Made by a program: the position numbers and the translations under genes. The notes beneath the pieces are model-generated. The model saw only the letters and a program-made list of their open reading frames with translations. It was not told the origin of the DNA and did not search any database. Below, piece after piece: positions 56-27,420 of a stretch of 64,000 bases of DNA; positions within the stretch are counted from its first letter, which is position 1, and every line of letters begins with the position of its first letter. Location of the stretch: positions 192,001 to 256,000 of the forward strand of contig CBDASZ010000001.1 of assembly GCA_965199755.1 (NCBI GenBank). The letters run 5' to 3'. This DNA is from an uncultured candidatus Porisulfidus sp. (GTDB taxonomy: Bacteria > Pseudomonadota > Gammaproteobacteria > Poriferisulfidales > Poriferisulfidaceae).

Positions 56-1054
56 ATGAAGCACTGCGTGCGCAGCGTTGCGGCACTGGCGCTTTTGGGC
101 GCCACGCTGACGATATCAGCGGACCCGGTCACACTCACGATCTACTCTTCGCGGCAAGAGCATTTGATTCAGCCGGTGCTGGATATGTACACCGAGAAGA
201 TGGGGGTTCAGTTCCGCCTGCATACCGGCAAGCCCGGGCCGCTGATCGAGCGGCTGTCTGCGTCGGAGGGAGAAGGAGATATTCTTCTGACGGTGGATGC
301 CGGGAATTTGTGGCATGCGACGCAACGCGGCTTGCTGCAGCCGCTGGACTCTCCGGTCTTGCAGGAATTGATCCCTCAAGCGCTTCGGGACTCGGAGAAC
401 CACTGGTTCGGGTTCTCGAAGCGGGTGCGCACCATTGCGTATAACACGCGAATCGTCTCGCCCGAACAACTGTCCACCTATGAAGCGCTGGCTGAAGAAG
501 AATGGAAAGGCCACCTGTGTCTGCGCACTTCGCAAAAAGTCTACAACCAGTCCCTGACGGCGATGATGATCGCCCATCATGGTGAGGAGAAAACCGAGCA
601 AATCACTTCCGGCTGGGTGGCGAATCTGGCCATGGAGCCTCTCTCCAACGACACCAAGGCCCTGCGCGCGGTCGCCGGCGGACAGTGTGGGGCGACGCTG
701 ATCAACACGTATTATTTCGGCCGCCTCATACGCGAGGAGCCGGATTTGAACTTGGCGTTGTTCTGGCCCAATCAGGAAGATCGCGGCGTGCATGTCAATA
801 TCTCCGGCGGCGGCATGCTGCGCAGCACCCAACAGCCTGAGGCGACGCAGGCATTTCTGGAGTGGCTGGCGCAAGACGAAGCGCAACGCCTGTTCGCGGA
901 ATTAAATCAGGAATTTCCGGCCAATCCCACCGTGCCGGCATCAGCGGAAGTCCAAGCCTGGGGTGCATTCAAGGAGGATCAGATCAACCTCGGTGAAGCC
1001 GGACGCTTGCAGGCTGTCGCGATTGAGTTGATGGACCGGGTCGATTGGCGATGA
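56..1054 (+). CDS. fbpA: Fe(III) ABC transporter periplasmic binding protein (FbpA/FutA family)
   Basis: Signal peptide; IYSSR, TVDAG, YNQSL, NTYY (iron-ligand tyrosines) and GVHVNISG motifs. Confidence 0.9.
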   Translation: MKHCVRSVAALALLGATLTISADPVTLTIYSSRQEHLIQPVLDMYTEKMGVQFRLHTGKPGPLIERLSASEGEGDILLTVDAGNLWHATQRGLLQPLDSPVLQELIPQALRDSENHWFGFSKRVRTIAYNTRIVSPEQLSTYEALAEEEWKGHLCLRTSQKVYNQSLTAMMIAHHGEEKTEQITSGWVANLAMEPLSNDTKALRAVAGGQCGATLINTYYFGRLIREEPDLNLALFWPNQEDRGVHVNISGGGMLRSTQQPEATQAFLEWLAQDEAQRLFAELNQEFPANPTVPASAEVQAWGAFKEDQINLGEAGRLQAVAIELMDRVDWR

Positions 1055-1070
1055 ACCGGATTCACTAGAA

Positions 1071-2672
1071 GTGCCGGTTTTTTTCTGGCGCTGGGGAAGC
1101 GGAGCGCTTGCAGCCGGCATCCTGATTCCCTTGTTGATTATTTTCGGTGCCTGGCTACAGCCGGCGACCGAGATCTGGGCGCACCTGGCGGAGACGGTGC
1201 TTCCACGCCTGATTGGCAACACACTCATTCTGATGGCTGGCGTGGCCGTGGGCACCACAGTATTGGGGGTGGGTTTGGCTTGGCTGGTGTCGGCTTACCG
1301 GTTTCCGGGCAGCCGCATTTTCGACTGGGCACTGATGCTGCCGTTAGCCGTGCCGGCCTATGTGATGGCTTTCGTATTTTTGGGGTTGATGGATTTTCAG
1401 GGGCCGGCGCAAGAGGTAATACGGACGATATTCGGCCTGCCGAGCTCGTGGTTTCTGGAAGTGCGCAATCCGATAGGAGTGCTGGTTGTGATGACGCTGG
1501 TGCTGTACCCGTATGTCTATATGCTGTCGCGCGCGACGTTTCTGAAGCAGGGCATGGCACCGCTGGAAGCGGCGCGCACGATGGGCATGACTTCATGGGA
1601 AAGTTTCCGCCACGTGGCGCTGCCGATGGCGCGCCCGGCCATCATTGCCGGTGTCAGTCTGGCGATTATGGAGGCGCTGGCGGATTTCGGTGCGGTCGCA
1701 GTGTTCAATTTCGACACCTTCACTACCGCAATTTACAAGGCATGGTTTGGGTTCTATGACTTGCGCGCGGCAAGCCAGCTGGCCTCGATGCTGCTGGCCT
1801 TTGCTTTTGCACTGCTTCTTTTGGAGCGATACAGCCGTGCCCGGGCCCGCTACACAATGCAAGGCCGCCCGGTCGGCCAACAGCCGCCGCAATTGCGCGG
1901 AGTGCACGCGGCGCTGGCGTGCGGGTTTTGCTCTCTGGTACTGCTGCTGGCGTTTCTCGTGCCCATGCTGCAGTTGCTGATCTGGGCATGGACCAACCTC
2001 CAGAATCTCGATCAAGAGTATCTGGCATTGGTTGGGCACACCTTGTTGCTGGGCGCAATCGCCGCGGCTGTGACTACGGTGGGCGCTTTCGTGATTGCGT
2101 ACGCTCAGCGTCAGGCTCCGAATCGCATGATGCGCGTGAACGCCCGCATTAGCACCTTGGGCTATGCCGTGCCGGGCTCGGTGCTGGCGGTCGCGGTCAT
2201 GTTATCCTTGAGTTGGATCGATCGCCAGATTGCGATGGTCTGGGAACAGTTCACCGGCGTATCGCTGAATGCCGTGCTGGTCGGGAGCGTTCTTAGTCTG
2301 GTTTTGGCATACTACGCGCGCTTTCTTGCCTTGGCGTTCAACCCGATTGAGGCCGGTCTGGAGCAGATCAAGCCCCACCTTCGCGAGGCGGCGCAATCAC
2401 TTGGATTGCGAGGAATTGAAATCGTGCGCCAGTTGTACCTTCCGATGTTGCGCCCCGGGTTGCTGACGGCGGCGCTGCTGGTGATGGTGGACGTGATGAA
2501 GGAGATGCCAGCGACCTTACTGTTGCGGCCTTATGGCTGGGACACGCTCGCCATACGGATTCACGGGTTGTCTTCAGAAGGCTTGTGGGAGCGAGCGGCC
2601 CTGCCGGCGGTGACGCTGGTGCTGATAGGCTTAATCCCGGTATTTTTGCTGTCGGCGCGAAGTCGCCGCTAG
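1071..2672 (+). CDS. fbpB: Fe(III) ABC transporter permease (two fused TM domains)
   Basis: Two EAA loops (LEAARTMG, REAAQSLG), EALADFG and KEMPATL motifs; follows fbpA. Confidence 0.9.
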   Translation: MPVFFWRWGSGALAAGILIPLLIIFGAWLQPATEIWAHLAETVLPRLIGNTLILMAGVAVGTTVLGVGLAWLVSAYRFPGSRIFDWALMLPLAVPAYVMAFVFLGLMDFQGPAQEVIRTIFGLPSSWFLEVRNPIGVLVVMTLVLYPYVYMLSRATFLKQGMAPLEAARTMGMTSWESFRHVALPMARPAIIAGVSLAIMEALADFGAVAVFNFDTFTTAIYKAWFGFYDLRAASQLASMLLAFAFALLLLERYSRARARYTMQGRPVGQQPPQLRGVHAALACGFCSLVLLLAFLVPMLQLLIWAWTNLQNLDQEYLALVGHTLLLGAIAAAVTTVGAFVIAYAQRQAPNRMMRVNARISTLGYAVPGSVLAVAVMLSLSWIDRQIAMVWEQFTGVSLNAVLVGSVLSLVLAYYARFLALAFNPIEAGLEQIKPHLREAAQSLGLRGIEIVRQLYLPMLRPGLLTAALLVMVDVMKEMPATLLLRPYGWDTLAIRIHGLSSEGLWERAALPAVTLVLIGLIPVFLLSARSRR

Positions 2673-2680
2673 GAGCAATC

Positions 2681-3751
2681 ATGGCGCACCTGGAAATGGA
2701 TCAGGTTTATTGCGCTCCGGGCGAGTATCCGGTGCTGCGCGGGTTTTCTCTGGAAATTAATCGCGGGGAGATTGTCGCTTTGCTGGGGCCTTCGGGTTGC
2801 GGCAAAACCACGGTGCTGCGCACCATTGCCGGTTTTGAGACGGTGCATCGGGGGGAGGTTCGCATTGCTGAACAGGTGGTGGCACGCCCGGGTTTCAGCA
2901 TGCCGACCGAGCGGCGCGCTGTCGGTGTAGTGTTTCAGGATTTCGCGCTGTTCCCGCACTTGACCGTGGCAGAGAATGTCGCCTTGGGCTTGCGCGGCAA
3001 GCCTGGTGCAGAGCAGCGTCAGCGTGTGCGTGAGATGCTGAAGAAAACCTATTTGGTCTCCGATCAGGATCACAGACTGGAAGGGCGTTATCCGCATGAA
3101 CTTTCAGGCGGCCAGCAAGCCCGAGTCGCGCTGGCGCGCGCCTTGGCGCCGCAGCCGAGCCTGCTTCTTTTGGATGAGCCGTTTGCCGATCTGGATGAGA
3201 ATTTGCGTGAGCGTCTGGCTGGGGATGTGCGTGACATTCTGCGAGAAATGGGCACCACAGCGTTGCTGGTGACACACCATCACGAGGAGGCGTTCGCACT
3301 CGGCGGTAGGGTTGGCATGATGCGCGAAGGTGCGATTTTGCAACTGGATACGCCCTTTAACCTCTACCATGAGCCCACCTCTCGTGAGGTGGCGACCTTT
3401 TTGGATCGCGGGCTGTTTTTGCCGGCCGAGCTGCGCTCGGCGCATGATTTTGAGACAGAACTTGGGCAGGTGCACAGCAAGAAACCGTACCCACAGTCAC
3501 CCGGCACGCGCATGGAGATGCTGCTGCACCGCAGTGATGTCTTGCCGGATCCGCAGGGCCCACTGGTCGGCGTGGTGGTGGAAAAGACCTTTCAGGGGGA
3601 TTCCACTTTATACAGCGTGCGTATGGAGTCCGGGTTTTGCGTGCAGGTGGTTACGTCCAGCCATACGGATCTGGAGTGTGGCGAGACCTTACGTATGCGT
3701 CTTGATCTGGAGCACGTCGTCGCCTTCCCTGTCTCTGAGCCGGAGGTGTGA
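2681..3751 (+). CDS. fbpC: Fe(III) ABC transporter ATP-binding protein
   Basis: Walker A GPSGCGKT, LSGGQ signature, LLLLDEPF; ATG at 2681 preceded by AGGAG. Confidence 0.88.
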   Translation: MAHLEMDQVYCAPGEYPVLRGFSLEINRGEIVALLGPSGCGKTTVLRTIAGFETVHRGEVRIAEQVVARPGFSMPTERRAVGVVFQDFALFPHLTVAENVALGLRGKPGAEQRQRVREMLKKTYLVSDQDHRLEGRYPHELSGGQQARVALARALAPQPSLLLLDEPFADLDENLRERLAGDVRDILREMGTTALLVTHHHEEAFALGGRVGMMREGAILQLDTPFNLYHEPTSREVATFLDRGLFLPAELRSAHDFETELGQVHSKKPYPQSPGTRMEMLLHRSDVLPDPQGPLVGVVVEKTFQGDSTLYSVRMESGFCVQVVTSSHTDLECGETLRMRLDLEHVVAFPVSEPEV

Positions 3752-3764
3752 CTGCGCTGGGGTT

Positions 3765-4277
3765 TCAGTGGTGCGTTTGTTCGTGTGCGAGCAGGCGGCG
3801 CTTGATTTCCAGCATGTGCGCTGACGCTGAAGGAGCCAGCGGTCCGCCATAGCCGCCCAGACTTCCATCTTTGCGAATCACGCGATGGCAAGGCACCACC
3901 ACACAAAGAGGATTGCGGCCATTGGCAGAGCCGACCGAACGAGGACTGCCGCCGGCACGGTGGGCGAGTTCACTGTATGAGCAGGTCTCGCCATAAGGGA
4001 TATCCAGCAAGGTGCGCCAGACTGTGAGACGCTGTGTGCCGTCGACAGGCGCGTCCTGCGCAAAAGGCGCGAGCGGCAAATCAAAATGTTTCCGCTTACC
4101 GGAGAAGTATTCCTGCAGTTGCGCGGCTGCAGTGTGCGTGAGATCGGTGGGTTGATCATGCAAGGCATCATCGCCCAGCACAAAATATACCGCTTCCAGT
4201 CCTTGCGGGCTGGCTAGCAACTGGATACGCGCGCCGAGCGGCGTATCGAAACTGTGTCGGGCTGTGATGTCGCCCAT
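3765..4277 (-). CDS. ogt: Methylated-DNA--protein-cysteine S-methyltransferase
   Basis: IPYGET.SY, RSVGSANGRNP and active-site PCHRV. Confidence 0.92.
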   Translation of the reverse strand: MGDITARHSFDTPLGARIQLLASPQGLEAVYFVLGDDALHDQPTDLTHTAAAQLQEYFSGKRKHFDLPLAPFAQDAPVDGTQRLTVWRTLLDIPYGETCSYSELAHRAGGSPRSVGSANGRNPLCVVVPCHRVIRKDGSLGGYGGPLAPSASAHMLEIKRRLLAHEQTHH

Positions 4278-4286
4278 GGCCGAGGG

Positions 4287-4643
4287 TCAGCGCTTGAGTT
4301 TTTCCTTAATGCGCGCGGCCTTGCCGGTGCGGGAGCGCAGATAGTACAACTTGGCGCGGCGTACTTTGCCCCGCCGTTTCACCGTGATTGAATCAATCAG
4401 CGGGCTGTGCGTCTGAAACACTCGCTCGACGCCTTCGCCGTGTGAGATCTTGCGTACTGTGAACGAAGAGTTCAGTCCGCGGTTTCGCTGTGCGATCACC
4501 ACGCCTTCGAAAGTCTGTAAGCGCTCGCGCTCGCCCTCGCGAACTTTTACCGCCACCGCCACCGTGTCGCCGGACGAAAACTCCACGTCCGCCAGATCCG
4601 GGCGCATCTGCGCCGCTTCCAGTTGTTCAATTATTGCGCTCAC
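4287..4643 (-). CDS. rplS: 50S ribosomal protein L19
   Basis: [36 protein letters not shown]; GTG start at 4643 chosen to fit L19 length. Confidence 0.95.
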
Positions 4644-5388
4644 GATCTGATTCCTTTGCTTTGGTGTTGCGGTATTCGTCGAGAATCGCCTGATCCTCTG
4701 CTGATAGCGAGGCTTTTTCAAGCAAGTCAGGACGGCGCAGCCAGGTTCGGATCAATGCCTTCCGGCGTCGCCAGCGGCCTATTTTGCCATGATTTCCAGA
4801 TAAAAGCACGTCCGGGGTTTTCATGCCGTCGATCTCTTCCGGTCGCGTGTAGTGGGGGCAGTCCAGAAGACTATCGTCAAAGGAGTCCTGCTCGGCGGAT
4901 TCCGCGCAGCCCAGAACGCCCGGCAGCAATCGGGCAATAGCGTCAATGACGACGGCGGCTGCCAGTTCGCCGCCGCTGATCACGTAATCTCCGAGTGACC
5001 ATTCAGTATCCGCATGACGTTGCAGAAAACGCTCATCAATACCCTCGTAACGCCCAGCCACCAGAATCAGCGCCTCTTCATTAGCCGCTTCCCGGGCGAG
5101 GGTTTGTGTGAATGGAACGCCTTGCGGGCTCAGCACGATGGTGCGCGCTTCAAGCGCGCTTTCGCACGCGGCGGCATGCGCCCGGGCCAAGGGTTCGTAA
5201 CACATGACCATGCCAGGGCCGCCACCGTAGGGGCGATCGTCAACAGTGCGGTGCACGTCGGTGGCGAAATCACGCGGGTTGACGCATTGCAAATCCAGAA
5301 GACCGCTCTCCCGAGCGCGGCCAATCACACCTTGGCTGGTTGCCGATTCCAGAATGTCCGCCAGCAGGCACAAAGTGACGATGCGCAT
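4627..5388 (-). CDS. trmD: tRNA (guanine37-N1)-methyltransferase
   Basis: [45 protein letters not shown]. Confidence 0.96.
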
Positions 5389-5391
5389 CGC

Positions 5392-5925
5392 TTACTCCAG
5401 CACACCGTCCCAGCGCACCTCAATGCGCCCGGACTCAAGAGAGACACTGCGCACGGTGTCGTCAGGAAGATAAGGAATCAGATACTCAGCATAGCCGCGC
5501 ACCAGCAGAACGTCATGGGCGGGGGACTCCAGAATTTCGGAGACTTCTCCGAGTACAGCGCCGTGCTGGTCCACCGCCTGCAATCCGAGCAGTTGATGGT
5601 GATAGTACTCGCCCGGCGGCAGTGCAGGAAATTGCGCCGGGTCAATGAGAATGTCGCGCCCGCACAGGGCCAGCGCCTGGTCCCGATCATCAATGCCGCG
5701 CAGTTTCGCAATCAGGGCTTTCTGATGGGGGCGCGCTTCTTCAAGTTCGTAGTCTTGCTCGTCCTCACCGTCACTCACTCGCCATGGTTGGTACTGGATC
5801 AGATTCTGTTGCGGGCGGGTGTAAGAGAACACGCGGACCCAGCCGCGCACACCGTAAGCGCTCCCGATGCGGCCGCATGGAGCGAAGCGGGGGACAGTGG
5901 GTGAGGGAGGTGTGGAGGAGGCCAG
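5392..5925 (-). CDS. rimM: Ribosome maturation factor RimM (start uncertain, possibly CTG at 5925)
   Basis: The N-terminal motif GRIGSAYGVRGWVRV begins upstream of the ORF-track start (5850); EYYHHQLLGL and LIPY PRC barrel; lies between rpsP and trmD. Confidence 0.88.
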   Translation of the reverse strand: MASSTPPSPTVPRFAPCGRIGSAYGVRGWVRVFSYTRPQQNLIQYQPWRVSDGEDEQDYELEEARPHQKALIAKLRGIDDRDQALALCGRDILIDPAQFPALPPGEYYHHQLLGLQAVDQHGAVLGEVSEILESPAHDVLLVRGYAEYLIPYLPDDTVRSVSLESGRIEVRWDGVLE

Positions 5926-5940
5926 AATGCTGGCGGAGGC

Positions 5941-6195
5941 TCAAGCCGCTTGCGCTGCCGCGTGCTGACGAATCAGTTTAGAGGCGCGCTCGGACATTTT
6001 GGCACCGACTTCAAGCCAGTGCGTCACGCGCTCCTGATCCACGCGCAAAGATTCTTCCCCGCCTCTGGCGGAAGGGTTGAAAAATCCAAGGCGCTCGATG
6101 TAGCCGCTGTCACGCGGACGGCGTGAGTCAGTGACTACCAGATGGTAGAACGGACGCTTTTTGGCCCCCGCGCGCGAAAGACGAATAACGACCAA
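5941..6195 (-). CDS. rpsP: 30S ribosomal protein S16
   Basis: [36 protein letters not shown]; TTG start with GCAGGAG SD. Confidence 0.97.
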
Positions 6196-6238
6196 TTCAG
6201 GCTCCTGCTTGAGTCATGTCACGTAATGTGAGGGGGTG

Positions 6239-6247
6239 ATTTTAGCA
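6239..6247 (-). promoter_or_regulatory. Putative extended -10 promoter element for the rpsP operon
   Basis: TGCTAAAAT (TGn + TAAAAT) on the minus strand ~45 bp upstream of rpsP. Confidence 0.45.
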
Positions 6248-6391
6248 GAAACGGGATAGTGGCAGTTTGCGGCGACCACAACTGTGTGACGATCCCAATG
6301 GCCATCTGTTCCTGCATCAGTAAGTGGGGGTCTTTGTCCGAGGCATACATAGTGCTGTCCAGCAAACAACCAGCAAACAAATTAGGTTCAT

Positions 6392-6888
6392 CTATTCGTC
6401 ACTCGGGCGGGCCCAAAATGGTAGGTATGTCCGACTTCGTGTTCCCACAGAGTGGTCTTCTATAACAATTTTTTCGTCCTCCACAGCCTCTTTCAGCAAA
6501 CGGGAAGCACCTGCAGCATTTTTATCACTGAGACCAAACCTTTTCCGCAGTATCGCATTTGTCATTTTGCTGGAAGTCACGTAACACAGGCAGGCGTGCA
6601 AATAGCATGCGCGGATGCGATCGCTCTTACCCATGTCTTTAAGATCTTTATGCGCGAACAGTACCGAGCGCGTAGATTTATCAGAAGCTTCGAACAACGG
6701 AGCGGGCAACTGAAAAAGTTCTATTCACCATTCAGAGCTGCGGAATTGGAAAGCGCGGAAATATACTCTCCGATTTCTTGTGGACCCGCTTTGTTACGCT
6801 TGAACTTCGCCCATTCCGTTTCGCCGACAGAACGGCACCCCTCCCGAACCAGACCGGTCAGATATTTGGCAGAGTAAGCAGGGCTCAT
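6392..6888 (-). pseudogene. Internally deleted AlbA_2(Schlafen)/HATPase_c_4/wHTH (MloB-like) gene
   Basis: 6888-6721 reads MSPAYSAKYLTGLVREGCRSVGETEWAKFKRN..PQEIGEYISALSNSAALNG (family N-terminus). It abuts, out of frame, IELFQLPAPLFE..DRIRACYLHACL..YLPFWA (family C-terminus); the middle of the gene is missing. Confidence 0.7.
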
Positions 6889-23395: not shown

Positions 23396-23615
23396 CCCCG
23401 GGGGCTTCTGTGGGAGCGAAAAGGCGACGGATCGCCGGTGACTTGGAAGTTCAGTGCGGCTTCGATTGAAGGATTCGAAGGGGTTCAATTATAAGGCTCA
23501 GGAAGAAATGTTGTCGAAACGAGTACTTGCATTACACAATGCAACTAGGATCAAGACTCCCGTAATATAATTGCCTTTCCTAGACTCCAAAAGCGTTCAG
23601 CAACCGCCTGGTTTT

Positions 23616-23985
23616 ATGAAGGTTCACGAAACCAAACTCATTAAATTTCTTAAACAAAGACGAACCTGCACAATTCTCGATTCCTATCTACCAGCGCAAG
23701 TATAGTTGGGGAAAGCCGGAATGCAAACAACTTTGGGATGACATTCGGAGAGCGGGTTCCAATCCTATGCGGCAACTCATTTCACTGGTTATATAGTCTA
23801 TATAGACCCAGGCCTTAATACAAGGCGGGTTAGCCGAATTGGTAGTAATTGATGGTCAGCAGCGTTTGACGACCTGATGCTTTTACTTGAAGCACTTGGG
23901 CGACACATTGAAAATTAAAGATTATGGAGCAGTAGTGGGAAAAGGGTTTTCTGCTAACGATATTCGCAGCAAATACTTAAAAATA
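23616..23985 (+). pseudogene. GmrSD (DUF262) type IV restriction gene, 5' fragment
   Basis: Frameshifted pieces MKVHETKL.., QFSIPIYQRKYSW..CKQLWDDI.RAG, HFTGYIVYI, VIDGQQRLTT; ends at the IS target duplication. Confidence 0.8.
23978..23985 (+). repeat. 8-bp target-site duplication, left copy (TAAAAATA)
   Basis: Identical to 26633-26640; both copies directly flank the inverted repeats. Confidence 0.9.
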
Positions 23986-24002
23986 GGGAATTATATACAA
24001 TG

Positions 24003-24878
24003 TTATCCATAAGGTATCTCGTGGCGAGAAAGTGATTGCGGGCACCCCTCTAACTGCACATCAAATTTAAGGGATGGGAGTATTTTACTTTCTGCGTTAT
24101 GCACACGGAATGATACCTGCCAACCACGATCCATGGTCATTATTGCCGTTGTCTTACTTCTTGGTTTCATTGAGATTTCAACTATCCTTTTAGGCATGGG
24201 AATCCGGCTACCCCATTGCAGATTTCCGCTCATATTAAATGACTGGATTGAGATATGACCGTTTTCTTTAATAATCTTGTAAAAATCGTGCCTACCAAGT
24301 AAATATCGCAACATCTTTTCCGGGTCGGCATTTTCTTCTATTTCCCTGATAAAAGCATTCAGAAGAGGTATATAGACTCCCTCATGTTTATCGTCTAGGT
24401 CGCGCCACAACTGACCTGTTTTCTTTTGCAACTTGTGGAAAACAGGCAATACTGCTTCCCAGTACTTTGTAGTGCAATGCTGACCATACCAAATTTCCCC
24501 GAAATCTAACTGGTCTGATAAACGGGGGTGCTTAAGTGCCTTGTGCCGATGTTTTGCTGATATGCCAATAATTGTCTCTGGTGTGTATATGAGAATATCC
24601 CGAACATCCCCAGACTGACCCGTGCTGTCCGCTTGCAACTCTATCCGTCGAGCATCCAATAAGCGAGAGTCATGTGTGCGTAGGAAAACCACGGCCTCGC
24701 CTGCCGCACGATCAATACGGCGGCGGTCATTGTTGTTAAGCAAGTCGTATGAATTTTGGGACTTGTTCCCCGCCCCATTTACTACTAGATTGATCTCGTT
24801 ATTCAAGACATCTACAAATTGACGGGCTAACCCATACTCCCAAGCCTTGCCGCTTTCAGTCTGAGTTATCTTCTTCAT
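24003..24878 (-). CDS. HaeIII-family type II restriction endonuclease
   Basis: GKAWEY, LQAD..GQSGDVRDILI, GISAKH.H.ALKH.RLS..LDFG, VY.PLL.AF, YLLG..DFYK, GWQVSFRVHNA, PSLKFDVQL; uninterrupted. Confidence 0.85.
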   Translation of the reverse strand: MKKITQTESGKAWEYGLARQFVDVLNNEINLVVNGAGNKSQNSYDLLNNNDRRRIDRAAGEAVVFLRTHDSRLLDARRIELQADSTGQSGDVRDILIYTPETIIGISAKHRHKALKHPRLSDQLDFGEIWYGQHCTTKYWEAVLPVFHKLQKKTGQLWRDLDDKHEGVYIPLLNAFIREIEENADPEKMLRYLLGRHDFYKIIKENGHISIQSFNMSGNLQWGSRIPMPKRIVEISMKPRSKTTAIMTMDRGWQVSFRVHNAESKILPSLKFDVQLEGCPQSLSRHEIPYG

Positions 24879-24879
24879 A

Positions 24880-25713
24880 TTAGAGATTGACGATAAGAAC
24901 TTCCTTTGATTGTTTGTCGCCGGACATTCCATAATTCCAAGATGGTGTAAGTATATCGTATTGGCTATACATCTGTCTGATTTTTTTGCTGTCGTTGTAA
25001 CTCATTATCCAGCCATTTCTCTGCTTCAATTCTTCTGCAAGTTCCTCGTGGTTAAATCCTTCATGCATATCGCCGCGGTCGCCGTATAACTTTTCACCAT
25101 TAGCATAGGGAGGGTCAAGGTAGAGTAATTTTTCAGAATGACGCTTGATTGTGTCTTTGTAATCAGCATAACGCACATTCAAGTTGCGGGCGCGGAAATC
25201 GCGCAATCTCTCTATCGCACTGGGTGTAAAACGAGGATGCCCCGGAGACATCCCACCAGATAGCGTAGTACCAGAAAAAGACGATCGATTCAGCACATAA
25301 AAAACGGCCGCTCTATCTAGCGCATCTGTAATATCTTCATAACCCTTCTGCAAATTGTAGAACTTTGTCTTTGTTAGGGGGTGATAAACACGGACGTGCT
25401 CGGCAAGTAAAACAGGACTGTTTTTCGCGTGTCGCCAGAAATTCACAAGTGGCTCAAAAGCATCTGCTCCATAAACCTTTATTCCGTCTGCGGCACAAGA
25501 CAACTCAACACTGCCCCCTCCTAAAAATGGTGCAGCTATCTTGTCTGTTCCCTCTGGAATGTATGCCTTGATCGTCTCGACTGCTCGGAACTTCCCACCG
25601 GGATAACGGAGAGGAGATTTTGCGCTGTGCGGCAAGCGTGGTGTCGATACAACACGAGATAGTGCAGGTTCAAATCCTCCTGCCAACCCCGGAATTACAC
25701 TCGGAGTTCTCAT
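24880..25713 (-). CDS. DNA amino-methyltransferase, Dam/D12 (alpha) class
   Basis: KSPLRYPGGK, PFLGGGSV (motif I), FYVLNRSSFSG, LYLDPPY (motif IV), WIMSYND; uninterrupted. Confidence 0.9.
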   Translation of the reverse strand: MRTPSVIPGLAGGFEPALSRVVSTPRLPHSAKSPLRYPGGKFRAVETIKAYIPEGTDKIAAPFLGGGSVELSCAADGIKVYGADAFEPLVNFWRHAKNSPVLLAEHVRVYHPLTKTKFYNLQKGYEDITDALDRAAVFYVLNRSSFSGTTLSGGMSPGHPRFTPSAIERLRDFRARNLNVRYADYKDTIKRHSEKLLYLDPPYANGEKLYGDRGDMHEGFNHEELAEELKQRNGWIMSYNDSKKIRQMYSQYDILTPSWNYGMSGDKQSKEVLIVNL

Positions 25714-26546
25714 CGCACTAATTCGGTATAGTGGAGTTCAGTTCCTGTGCCGCCTGTTACCGTGTGCTCTATCTTCGCAAGAGTTCCCTGTTTCCGCATA
25801 TTATGCCGTGTTAAAAACTCATCAATGTAGCGGTGCAAGTGCTTCTGTGACATTGAATGATGAGTGCCATAGCGTCCACGCTTCAATAGCGCCCAGAAGG
25901 ACTCAATGCCGTTGGTATGCGCCATATCACGCACATACTCTCCAACGCTATGGCACACTGCGCTATGATCAAAATCAACCATGCCAAGATAACTCCTGTA
26001 GTCATCAGTATAAACTACTTTCCCCCCTTCGTGGCCTCCCGGACAAATCCCTGCAACTCGTTGTTGTCAGTGTGTTGCACATGACGCGCTTGAACTTTTC
26101 CACCTCGCCGAGTATGTGTGCCGACAACAGCAGCTTTCCCAACAGCACCGCGTCCAGCACGAAGTTTCTTGTTGGAGTGCTTGTTCTTCTTCTTTCCCCC
26201 AATGTATGTTTCATCAACTTCTACTGGGCCAGTGATCAAACCACCCATCTGCTCCCATGCTTTGCGAATGCGGTGTGCTAGAAACCATGCTGATGTTTGT
26301 TGTGCCATAATCGTGTTGGTTCGCACACTGAAATGTTGTCTGCATGAGCGACAACGGAATGGCTGGGGCTTGCGGTTTCTAGTCTCGGCTATATTCTCAC
26401 TGCTACACTTGGGGCAAACTGGCTCCTCTCTCCACCGCAACTCAATCAAATATCTTTCGGCGGTTTGTTCGTTAGGGATTCGTTGCAGAAACTACGCACA
26501 TGCTGATTTCGTTATTCGGCTTGTATGTGTCGGTCTTTTTAGGCAT
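25710..26546 (-). pseudogene. IS1595-family (ISXO2-like DDE) transposase, disrupted
   Basis: CPKC..CRSC Zn ribbon, GPVEVDETYIGG, VYTD, HTNGIESFWALLKRG..GTHH; frameshifts near 26495 and 26020; HTH segment absent between TIMA and QQTSAWF. Confidence 0.88.
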
Positions 26547-26632
26547 GGGTTAACTCCGTTGTATGGCTAACATTGCTACCATACTATGAAGCAGATTTCA
26601 AGCTCGGTTGGTTAGCATTGTATATAGTTCCC

Positions 26633-26640
26633 TAAAAATA
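26633..26640 (+). repeat. 8-bp target-site duplication, right copy (TAAAAATA)
   Basis: Identical to 23978-23985. Confidence 0.9.
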
Positions 26641-27106
26641 GATGGCCGTACCAAACTTCTTTTGAATCAGGTAGATGAAGGCAGTCTGACTGCTATATTG
26701 ATAAATCGAGAGTTTCCCCAGGGGGTCAGACCGAATTAGCGAAAATTTTGAGTACTTTGATCAGGAAATTAGGGAACTTGATGCCACTGAATTGAGAGAA
26801 CTTTGTGGCGGGTTAAGAAAACTTATAGTTATTAGTGTCGGTGTTGGGCCGGGGGACGATAATCCTCAAAGAATCTTTGGAAGTATGAACGCAAAAGGAC
26901 TAGAGCTGACGCAGGCTGACAAGATTCTCAATTTTATCCTCATGGATTTAGAACTGGGCAAGCAAGAGGAATTATATGAAGATTACTGGCTAAAAATGGA
27001 ACAAGAGTTTGGGCAAGAAGAATATAGAGAAAGGTTTGATATGCTTATCTCCCCAAACTCCCGCAGAATATACGGCTTGCTAATGGTGAAAATTTTGTCT
27101 ATATAA
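26633..27106 (+). pseudogene. GmrSD (DUF262) gene, 3' fragment, truncated before the HNH domain
   Basis: KIDGRTKLLLNQVD.., ENFEYF, DDNPQRIFGSMNAKGLELTQADKILNFILM..LYEDYW.KME continue the 5' fragment. Confidence 0.8.
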
Positions 27107-27344
27107 GCCATCAGGGCATCAGTCTCGGATAAGTTACGGGGCTACCGCTTATTATGCGGACAGGTTATTGCGCCTACCCCCCGGTACTCTCACTTTATCA
27201 TGCTCCCAAGGCGCGTCCGTGAATACAAATGCGGCGCTTTAGATGCCGCCAGAAGATCAAAACAAAGCCTGTCTAAAATGCCTGGCAACAGTATTTGCAG
27301 GCAAATACTGGCACCCCACAATAAATGCACAGCCTAGTGCGCTG

Positions 27345-27353
27345 TGCTAAAAT
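27345..27353 (+). promoter_or_regulatory. Putative extended -10 element of the atp operon
   Basis: TGCTAAAAT ~70 bp upstream of atpI; identical to the element upstream of rpsP. Confidence 0.45.
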
Positions 27354-27420
27354 TCATCGCGCAAATTGAAGGTGTCGCGGGAGCAATCCACGATGCCGGG
27401 GATGCGCCACCGTAAAGGCC

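Follow-up and report, generated by a model that had tools for sequence, protein, structure and literature searches.

A probable IS1595-family transporter element carrying a type II restriction-modification operon, and its relatives in other bacteria

Insertion sequence (IS)-like elements with passenger genes, the transporter ISs (tISs), have been described as confined to the families IS1595 and IS66 (bioRxiv 10.1101/2021.05.26.445724; PMC9330008). The IS1595-type elements MTnSag1/tISSag10 and tISCpe8 are described with 25-bp repeats, 8-bp duplications, AT-rich targets and lengths of 1.7-2.0 kb (PMC5704250). Restriction-modification (R-M) genes between imperfect inverted repeats with an 8-bp duplication were reported by Furuta, Abe and Kobayashi in 2010, whose N. 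gonorrhoeae unit has 26-bp repeats and a likely inactivated transposase derivative (COG3677; PMC2853133). Here, we describe a compact unit that combines an IS1595-family transposase gene with a type II R-M operon. It occupies positions 23986-26632 (2647 bp) of a 64,000-nucleotide stretch, hereafter the window, from an uncultured candidatus Porisulfidus sp. (assembly GCA_965199755.1, contig CBDASZ010000001.1, positions 192,001 to 256,000 of the forward strand).

The unit is bounded by the ends GGGAATTATATACAATGTTATCC and GGGAACTATATACAATGCTAACC, which match at 20 of 23 positions and form the longest inverted repeat of the region (23986-24008 on the side of the restriction endonuclease, REase; 26610-26632 on the transposase side). 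Exact copies of the 8-bp target-site duplication TAAAAATA flank it at 23978-23985 and 26633-26640. Three genes are read on the minus strand, in the order transposase (a pseudogene, 25710-26546), DNA methyltransferase (MTase; 24880-25713, 277 aa, intact) and REase (24003-24878, 291 aa, intact). The transposase stop overlaps the MTase start in an ATGA at 25710-25713, the REase ATG (24878-24876) follows the MTase stop (24880-24882) after one base, and the REase stop at 24003-24005 lies inside the terminal repeat, as it does in the sibling elements described below. In-silico excision of the unit together with one duplication copy leaves a single frame that crosses the junction (...SKYLKI before it, DGRTKLL... 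after it). The restored frame is that of a much decayed GmrSD/DUF262 (type IV restriction) gene, whose two parts lie on the plus strand: the left part at 23620-23985, with several stops and frameshifts (PF03235, 7e-09 for 23620-23793), and the right part at 26641-27106 (PF03235, 6.3e-4, below cut-off, profile positions 160-198).

Profile searches agree with this layout. Two pieces of the transposase match PF12762 and the zinc ribbon PF12760 is also found in Pfam, while the match to NF033547 of NCBIfam stays below the cut-off because the gene is split; residues E248 and K255 of the transposase alignment stand 7 apart, which is compatible with a DDEK signature. The MTase belongs to the D12-class (Dam-like) N6-adenine enzymes (PF02086, 2.9e-28; TIGR00571, 6.5e-23, below its cut-off), carries a SAM-binding FLGGG motif (residue 63) and a catalytic DPPY motif (residue 200), and has 7m6b as its best solved relative (6.2e-35). 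The REase matches the HaeIII-family profile PF09556 over its full length (1.6e-73, positions 1-298); its listed 309-aa open reading frame (ORF) starts 18 codons upstream of the start of homologues of about 290 aa, and a profile search of solved structures yielded no homologue of it. Both cargo genes lie within the repeats, in the window and in its siblings, as the passengers of a tIS do. We conclude that the unit is very probably a tIS of the IS1595 family, in which a DDE transposase would be translationally coupled to a type II R-M operon between inverted repeats of about 24 bp. The extent of the unit, its repeats and duplication, and its operon with the ATGA overlap and the REase stop in the repeat, all proposed in the original prediction, were confirmed on the sequence with small corrections only, and the idea of an IS1595-family transposon with cargo reaching its edge is borne out by the ends, the duplication, the Pfam matches and the siblings.

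Compared with MTnSag1 and tISCpe8, the window element and its family likewise combine a single IS1595-type DDE transposase with passengers inside the repeats, 8-bp duplications and AT-rich targets; the repeats measure 23-27 bp, the elements 2.6-4.2 kb, and all 22 exact duplications found in this study are together 86% A+T. The cargo is different, since those elements carry a gene for lincosamide resistance together with a fortuitous oriT, whereas here a two-gene type II R-M operon overlaps the transposase stop and ends inside the repeat. The hosts differ as well: theirs are Firmicutes, ours mainly uncultured bacteria, marine and sponge-associated, from several phyla. The N. gonorrhoeae unit shares with the window a kept R-M component and a dead transposase. 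Unlike the window element, it carries a truncated type IIG gene and an S subunit; its authors left undecided whether it had been moved by the transposase or by the R-M genes, and showed no intact siblings. For the window element, intact siblings exist, transposase and cargo co-diverge, and the cargo varies in a series of related elements. The novelty claimed in the original prediction is overstated, in that cargo-bearing IS1595 tISs are already in print, as is an R-M unit bounded by 26-bp repeats that has an 8-bp duplication and a probably inactivated transposase (PMC2853133). Apart from that report, our search of the literature, which left the core ISfinder literature outside its scope so that an earlier description is possible, found no IS1595 lineage systematically carrying type II R-M operons.

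Related loci and the history of the association

A profile of 32 REase homologues yielded 41 loci (L015-L055) in contigs sampled at one genome per species. At all 41, a D12 methylase stands directly upstream of the REase or its remnant, and at nine of them (L015, L016, L017, L019, L022, L030, L035, L045 and L054) a transposase lies directly upstream on the same strand, with an uninterrupted frame of 311-325 aa in six of the nine. Five loci (L015, L016, L022, L035 and L054) are complete elements with both ends (consensus GGGAATTATATACAATGTTAGCCA). Their repeats match over 24 to 27 consecutive bases from the tip, and over up to 34 of 38 when mismatches are counted in, and four of the five show exact 8-bp duplications (AAAAAAAT, CAAGGAAT, TAAGTTTT and TTATTTTA). 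L045, L025 and L044 keep the REase-side repeat only, the latter two without a transposase. According to the record titles, the hosts include many sponge-associated and other uncultured bacteria from at least six phyla. The search for an IS1595 transposase with a D12 MTase and RE_HaeIII in other genomes, proposed with the original prediction, was thus productive, and siblings with the same ends and an intact transposase exist, so that the R-M pair is not always found without the IS. The independent insertion sites with duplications, among them that of L016 inside another transposase gene, are an indirect sign of transposition.

Among these loci, some arrangements are more complex. The L016 element (3125-5887, duplication CAAGGAAT) is inserted in the transposase gene of another IS1595-type element (963-6647), which has its own ends (GGAAATTATAAAGAAAGG...) and cargo including a fusion of an N6_N4 methylase with a T5orf172 domain. 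The L054 element (1731-5896, 4166 bp, duplication TTATTTTA) holds an additional ORF of 322 aa, without a Pfam match, between the left end and the transposase. At L030 (1847-4156), two tandem IS1595-type transposase remnants precede the D12 and HaeIII-family pair, and a beta-class methylase-like frame with a DPPF motif lies between them. Two GGGAATTATATAC-type ends face each other 7 bases apart at L020 (1187-1195), far from the R-M pair of that locus, and may represent abutting or nested elements.

The shared history of transposase and cargo was studied with a tree of concatenated MTase and REase sequences (34 rows, after L037, L040, L044, L050-L053 and L055 had been dropped as broken or short). 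The window groups with L015, L016, L022, L045 and L025, all of which bear a transposase or a repeat (Shimodaira-Hasegawa-like approximate likelihood ratio test, SH-aLRT, 86). Over the tree, 5 changes suffice for the transposase-bearing state, compared with a mean of 8.9 after shuffling (2 of 500 shuffles are as low), and pairwise identities of transposase and cargo among seven elements correlate at r = 0.94, a value reached by 15 of 5040 permutations. We read this as one old association, probably followed by repeated loss of the transposase and the ends, with repeated capture as the alternative. Several observations weigh against the tIS reading. L035 has no duplication, and in 30 of the 32 loci lacking a transposase the repeat is undetected when up to 7 mismatches in 24 are allowed, which means that many such R-M pairs have either lost the IS or never carried it. 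The number of copies is one per genome in five sibling genomes, which gives no sign of recent bursts, and the presence or absence of the transposase still requires about five changes on the cargo tree.

The same backbone also carries different cargo elsewhere. With a profile built from six intact transposases, 581 stretches of metagenome contigs were confirmed, and the following counts come from the best 80 of these 581. They contain 26 complete elements with GGGAATTATATAC-type ends, 17 of them with exact 8-bp duplications. Five of the 26 are cargo-less (1026-1451 bp), and the other 21 carry 0.9-2.25 kb after the transposase. Pfam searches on 40 cargo ORFs identified a DNA methyltransferase in 8 of the 21 loaded elements, and a named nuclease partner in five of these eight. 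The assigned cargoes are D12 with RE_HaeIII, as in the window element (L072), D12 with PDDEXK_11 (L140), C5 with HNH (L126), N6_N4 with MvaI_BcnI (L092), C5 with NgoBV (L139), C5 with an ORF lacking an assignment and Vsr (L097), a SocA/Panacea protein (L076), a KilA-N protein (L083) and a weak tRNA_anti-like match (L073); in ten loaded elements, the cargo has no Pfam match. As the original prediction proposed, the lineage may belong to the ISNwi1 subgroup, which in the ISfinder scheme has ends of the form ggnnatTAT, an 8-bp duplication, a DDEK transposase and a '+' class of 1.75-4.75 kb with passengers. The ends GGGAATTAT... and the lengths of empty (1.0-1.45 kb) and loaded (1.9-4.2 kb) elements would fit this subgroup.

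Transposase decay and the state of the restriction-modification pair

The original prediction described the transposase as broken. The gene is indeed broken; it starts at 26546 and has three lesions, namely one extra base at 26494, an in-frame deletion of 102 bp (34 aa) at 26299/26304, where contigs of the runs discussed below have 106 letters and the window has 4, and one base lost from the G-run behind 26021. Aligned to the intact transposase of L015, the window gene runs in two frames with a gap of 34 residues, which are those between the zinc ribbon and the DDE domain. It keeps 74 of the 87 conserved columns (defined here and below as at least 90% conserved in relatives, 33 homologues in the case of the REase), nine having been lost to the deletion and four substituted. 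A 136-base contig in run X1 carries the window's own G-run allele with zero differences and at the same depth as the host flanks, so this frameshift is not an error peculiar to the assembly, with the caveat that X1 may itself be the source of the assembly.

The genome of the host (98.9% complete) contains only two IS1595-family loci, both broken, so no helper is on board. Within it, we found no second copy of the unit, the sole match being a weak one of 72 bp to another IS1595 relic, and no convincing solo ends. With two frameshifts, the loss of 34 amino acids and no other intact transposase of the family, the unit is fixed in place. The proposal that it could be mobilised in trans is weakened, in that this genome has no intact IS1595-family transposase; the intact helper is in another organism.

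This helper belongs to a near-identical sibling. The 90%-identity clusters of the window REase, MTase and C-terminal transposase piece have one further member each (P0121, P0123 and P0245), and all three are encoded on a single contig of 2,634,738 bp from another organism. P0121 is identical to the window REase at 283 of 309 positions (92%) and P0123 to the MTase at 270 of 277 (97%). P0245 is an intact transposase of 312 aa with both Pfam domains at full length and 89-93% identity to the window pieces; it was found by an exact-cluster look-up, a search among longer proteins having given a best match of 73%. In runs X1 and X2, contigs match the unit from exactly 23986 at about 96% identity and then enter a different flank. 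They carry none of the three transposase lesions, and thus date these and give the exact events, and their depth is 53-68, compared with 9-17 for the window flanks. The residue differences of P0121 are those of these contigs. The matching differences, the different flank and the depth indicate that a live sibling and the dead copy are present in the same samples, in different organisms.

The R-M pair is intact beside the dead transposase, as originally proposed, with 92 of 93 conserved columns kept in the MTase and 71 of 72 in the REase. If lesions were spread evenly over the 2649 coding bases, the chance that all three would hit the transposase is about (939/2649)^3 = 0.045, and their placement is weak evidence that the pair has been kept.

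Classical HaeIII-type R-M systems recognize GGCC and modify it with 5-methylcytosine. The endonuclease studied here likewise belongs to Pfam RE_HaeIII, but at all 41 loci of this subgroup its partner is an adenine methylase of the D12 class rather than a cytosine-5 enzyme. With such a partner, the recognition site must contain an A and is probably not GGCC; for the REase of the window, too, judging from its sequence family and partner, a site other than GGCC is probable. No relative of the REase was found in phages, and plasmids contain only distant ones (at most 43.5% identity), the best of which lies beside a cytosine-5 methylase; the D12-type pairing also occurs on cyanobacterial plasmids, at 25-28% identity.

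Promoter layout, alternative explanations and a proposed mechanism

L016 and L015 have a sigma-70-type site (TTGACA-17-TAGAAT or TACAAT) that matches at 11 of 12 positions and lies 32-70 bp inside the transposase-side end. By eye, the layout is alike in L022, L072, L035 and the window, with a 17-base spacer. Next to the -10 box, and in part overlapping it, lies another copy of the inner repeat motif (AATGTTAGCCA), which is present within 2 mismatches in four of the seven elements checked, and this position suggests that the transposase probably represses itself. In the window, an inverted-repeat scan placed the second copy (CAATGTTAGCCA), a candidate transposase operator, at 26562-26575. The promoter-like site, TTGAAA-17-TAGCAA (26573-26601, minus strand), read by eye against the siblings, appears degraded, and a promoter scan of the window returned nothing at this site. 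The TAGCAA box together with the empty scan makes expression of the R-M pair in the window uncertain; among the public runs, no RNA data set was listed as containing this stretch.

These features bear on an explanation that we consider unlikely, in which the whole unit, including the R-M pair, is a silent relic whose cargo genes are whole only because the element died recently, and which is neither expressed nor under selection. The -10 box is degraded compared with four siblings and no promoter-like site is found there by the scan; the MTase has no obvious ribosome-binding site of its own in front of it and is translationally coupled to an upstream frame that is now broken; the small host genome has other decayed mobile and defence genes, and strain variants without 23817-27207 exist (contigs of runs X2 and X4). 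Non-synonymous changes are not rare either, since 22 of the 37 listed changed REase codons alter the residue relative to the sibling and 15 do not, a count that rests on 40 of about 110 differences. All of this weighs against activity of the pair. On the other side, three lesions fell in 0.94 kb of transposase and none in 1.71 kb of R-M genes, which has the low probability given above under equal rates, the conserved positions of both enzymes are almost completely kept, and the altered REase residues occupy variable columns, with an even division (10 to 8) between the window copy and the intact sibling. Taking these points together, and judging from sequence, we lean towards an R-M pair that is still expressed and active in this organism. 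The retention by selection that had been proposed for it is weakened: the placement of the lesions speaks for it, and the degraded -10 box and the strains without the unit speak against it.

Continued mobility of the element is very improbable, whether by programmed frameshifting, which the IS1595 relative IS1 uses, or with the aid of a helper inside the same cell. The ends are still alike at 20 of 23 positions, and the 96% sibling with an intact transposase is in the same samples. However, six siblings and P0245 encode the transposase in one uninterrupted frame, the stretch of 34 residues that links the zinc ribbon to the DDE domain is gone, the almost complete host genome has no intact family member and the sibling resides in another organism. 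Even less credible is a chance neighbourhood, in which an ordinary IS1595 element would have come to lie beside a resident R-M pair and the REase-side repeat would be coincidental. Although 32 of the 41 loci with the R-M pair have no adjoining transposase, the three genes are all enclosed by the 8-bp duplication and the restored GmrSD frame, the repeat at the REase stop recurs in L015, L016, L022, L035, L045, L054, L025, L044 and L072, and transposase and cargo co-diverge. Since the ends and 8-bp duplications bracket the three genes in other genomes too, we regard this explanation as refuted.

The anatomy shows that the unit inserted as a whole, by transposition, at an AT-rich 8-bp target within a restriction gene of the GmrSD type. 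For its working as a tIS with a retained R-M operon, the following mechanism can be proposed. A single sigma-70-type promoter about 30-60 bp inside the transposase-side end, as the siblings suggest, would drive the transposase, then the methylase and then the nuclease, and the transposase, by binding the motif copy at the -10 box, would probably repress its own promoter and with it the cargo. The methylase-first order and the start/stop overlap should put protection before cutting. The R-M pair may give the element persistence, through restriction of phage and foreign DNA and possibly through the killing of cells that lose it, and the transposase would in turn give the pair mobility; after decay of the transposase, a resident R-M system would remain. 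More tentatively, the GGGAATTATATAC-ended IS1595 lineage as a whole might be a dedicated modular vehicle for type II R-M systems, that is, an autoregulated single transcription unit of long co-divergence, which crosses phyla as single copies in sponge and other communities and ends preferentially in AT-rich defence islands where its transposase decays. The D12 and HaeIII-family pair could then be largely a product of this lineage, and the transposase-less loci its fossils.

The movement of R-M systems between distant bacteria is only partly understood, and this locus and its relatives provide a complete series for one route. The series runs from the empty IS of 1.0-1.45 kb through loaded intact elements in several phyla and the 96% sibling from the same samples, whose transposase is live, to a dead transposase with a whole R-M pair, then to one repeat only and finally to the R-M pair only. 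It shows how a simple single-transposase IS can deliver a defence system and then leave it behind. The operator copy at the -10 box offers a testable layout for autoregulation, and for a HaeIII-family subgroup that is always accompanied by an adenine methylase, a new specificity is expected. The window itself mostly offers tidy annotation; it is the picture at the level of the family, with modular cargo, co-divergence and a possibly autoregulated operon, that is worth following.

Insertion site and host genome

The host genome comprises 1.39 Mb in 4 contigs, with 58% GC. The unit has a GC content of 42-50%, similar to the 41-50% of the island that surrounds it, and the flanks have about 60%. 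This low-GC island (23500-27400), between a murJ-like gene and the ATP synthase operon, is variable. Its flanks are conserved in 15 genomes of the same genus, in which no copy of the unit or of the GmrSD gene was found, hence no precise empty site there; the interior of the island is unmatched in them except for short transposase-like stretches elsewhere in those genomes. In contigs from runs X2 and X4, position 23816 is linked to 27208 through 5 other letters, so strains exist without the whole transposon and most of the GmrSD pseudogene (23817-27207). Loss of the unit is therefore tolerated, or the unit was never fixed. Such strains do not favour strict addiction.

The second IS1595-family locus of the host (L003, about 343220-345700 on contig C2) consists of a relic in two frames (about 343260-344184), after which comes an N-terminal fragment of a methylase of the N6_N4 type (PF01555). 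A right-hand repeat was looked for at this locus and none was found. On the opposite strand, the C-terminal part of a methylase is fused to an HNH nuclease. The relic itself stands at the end of another, SPPY-type methylase-like frame, in an island of 42-52% GC.

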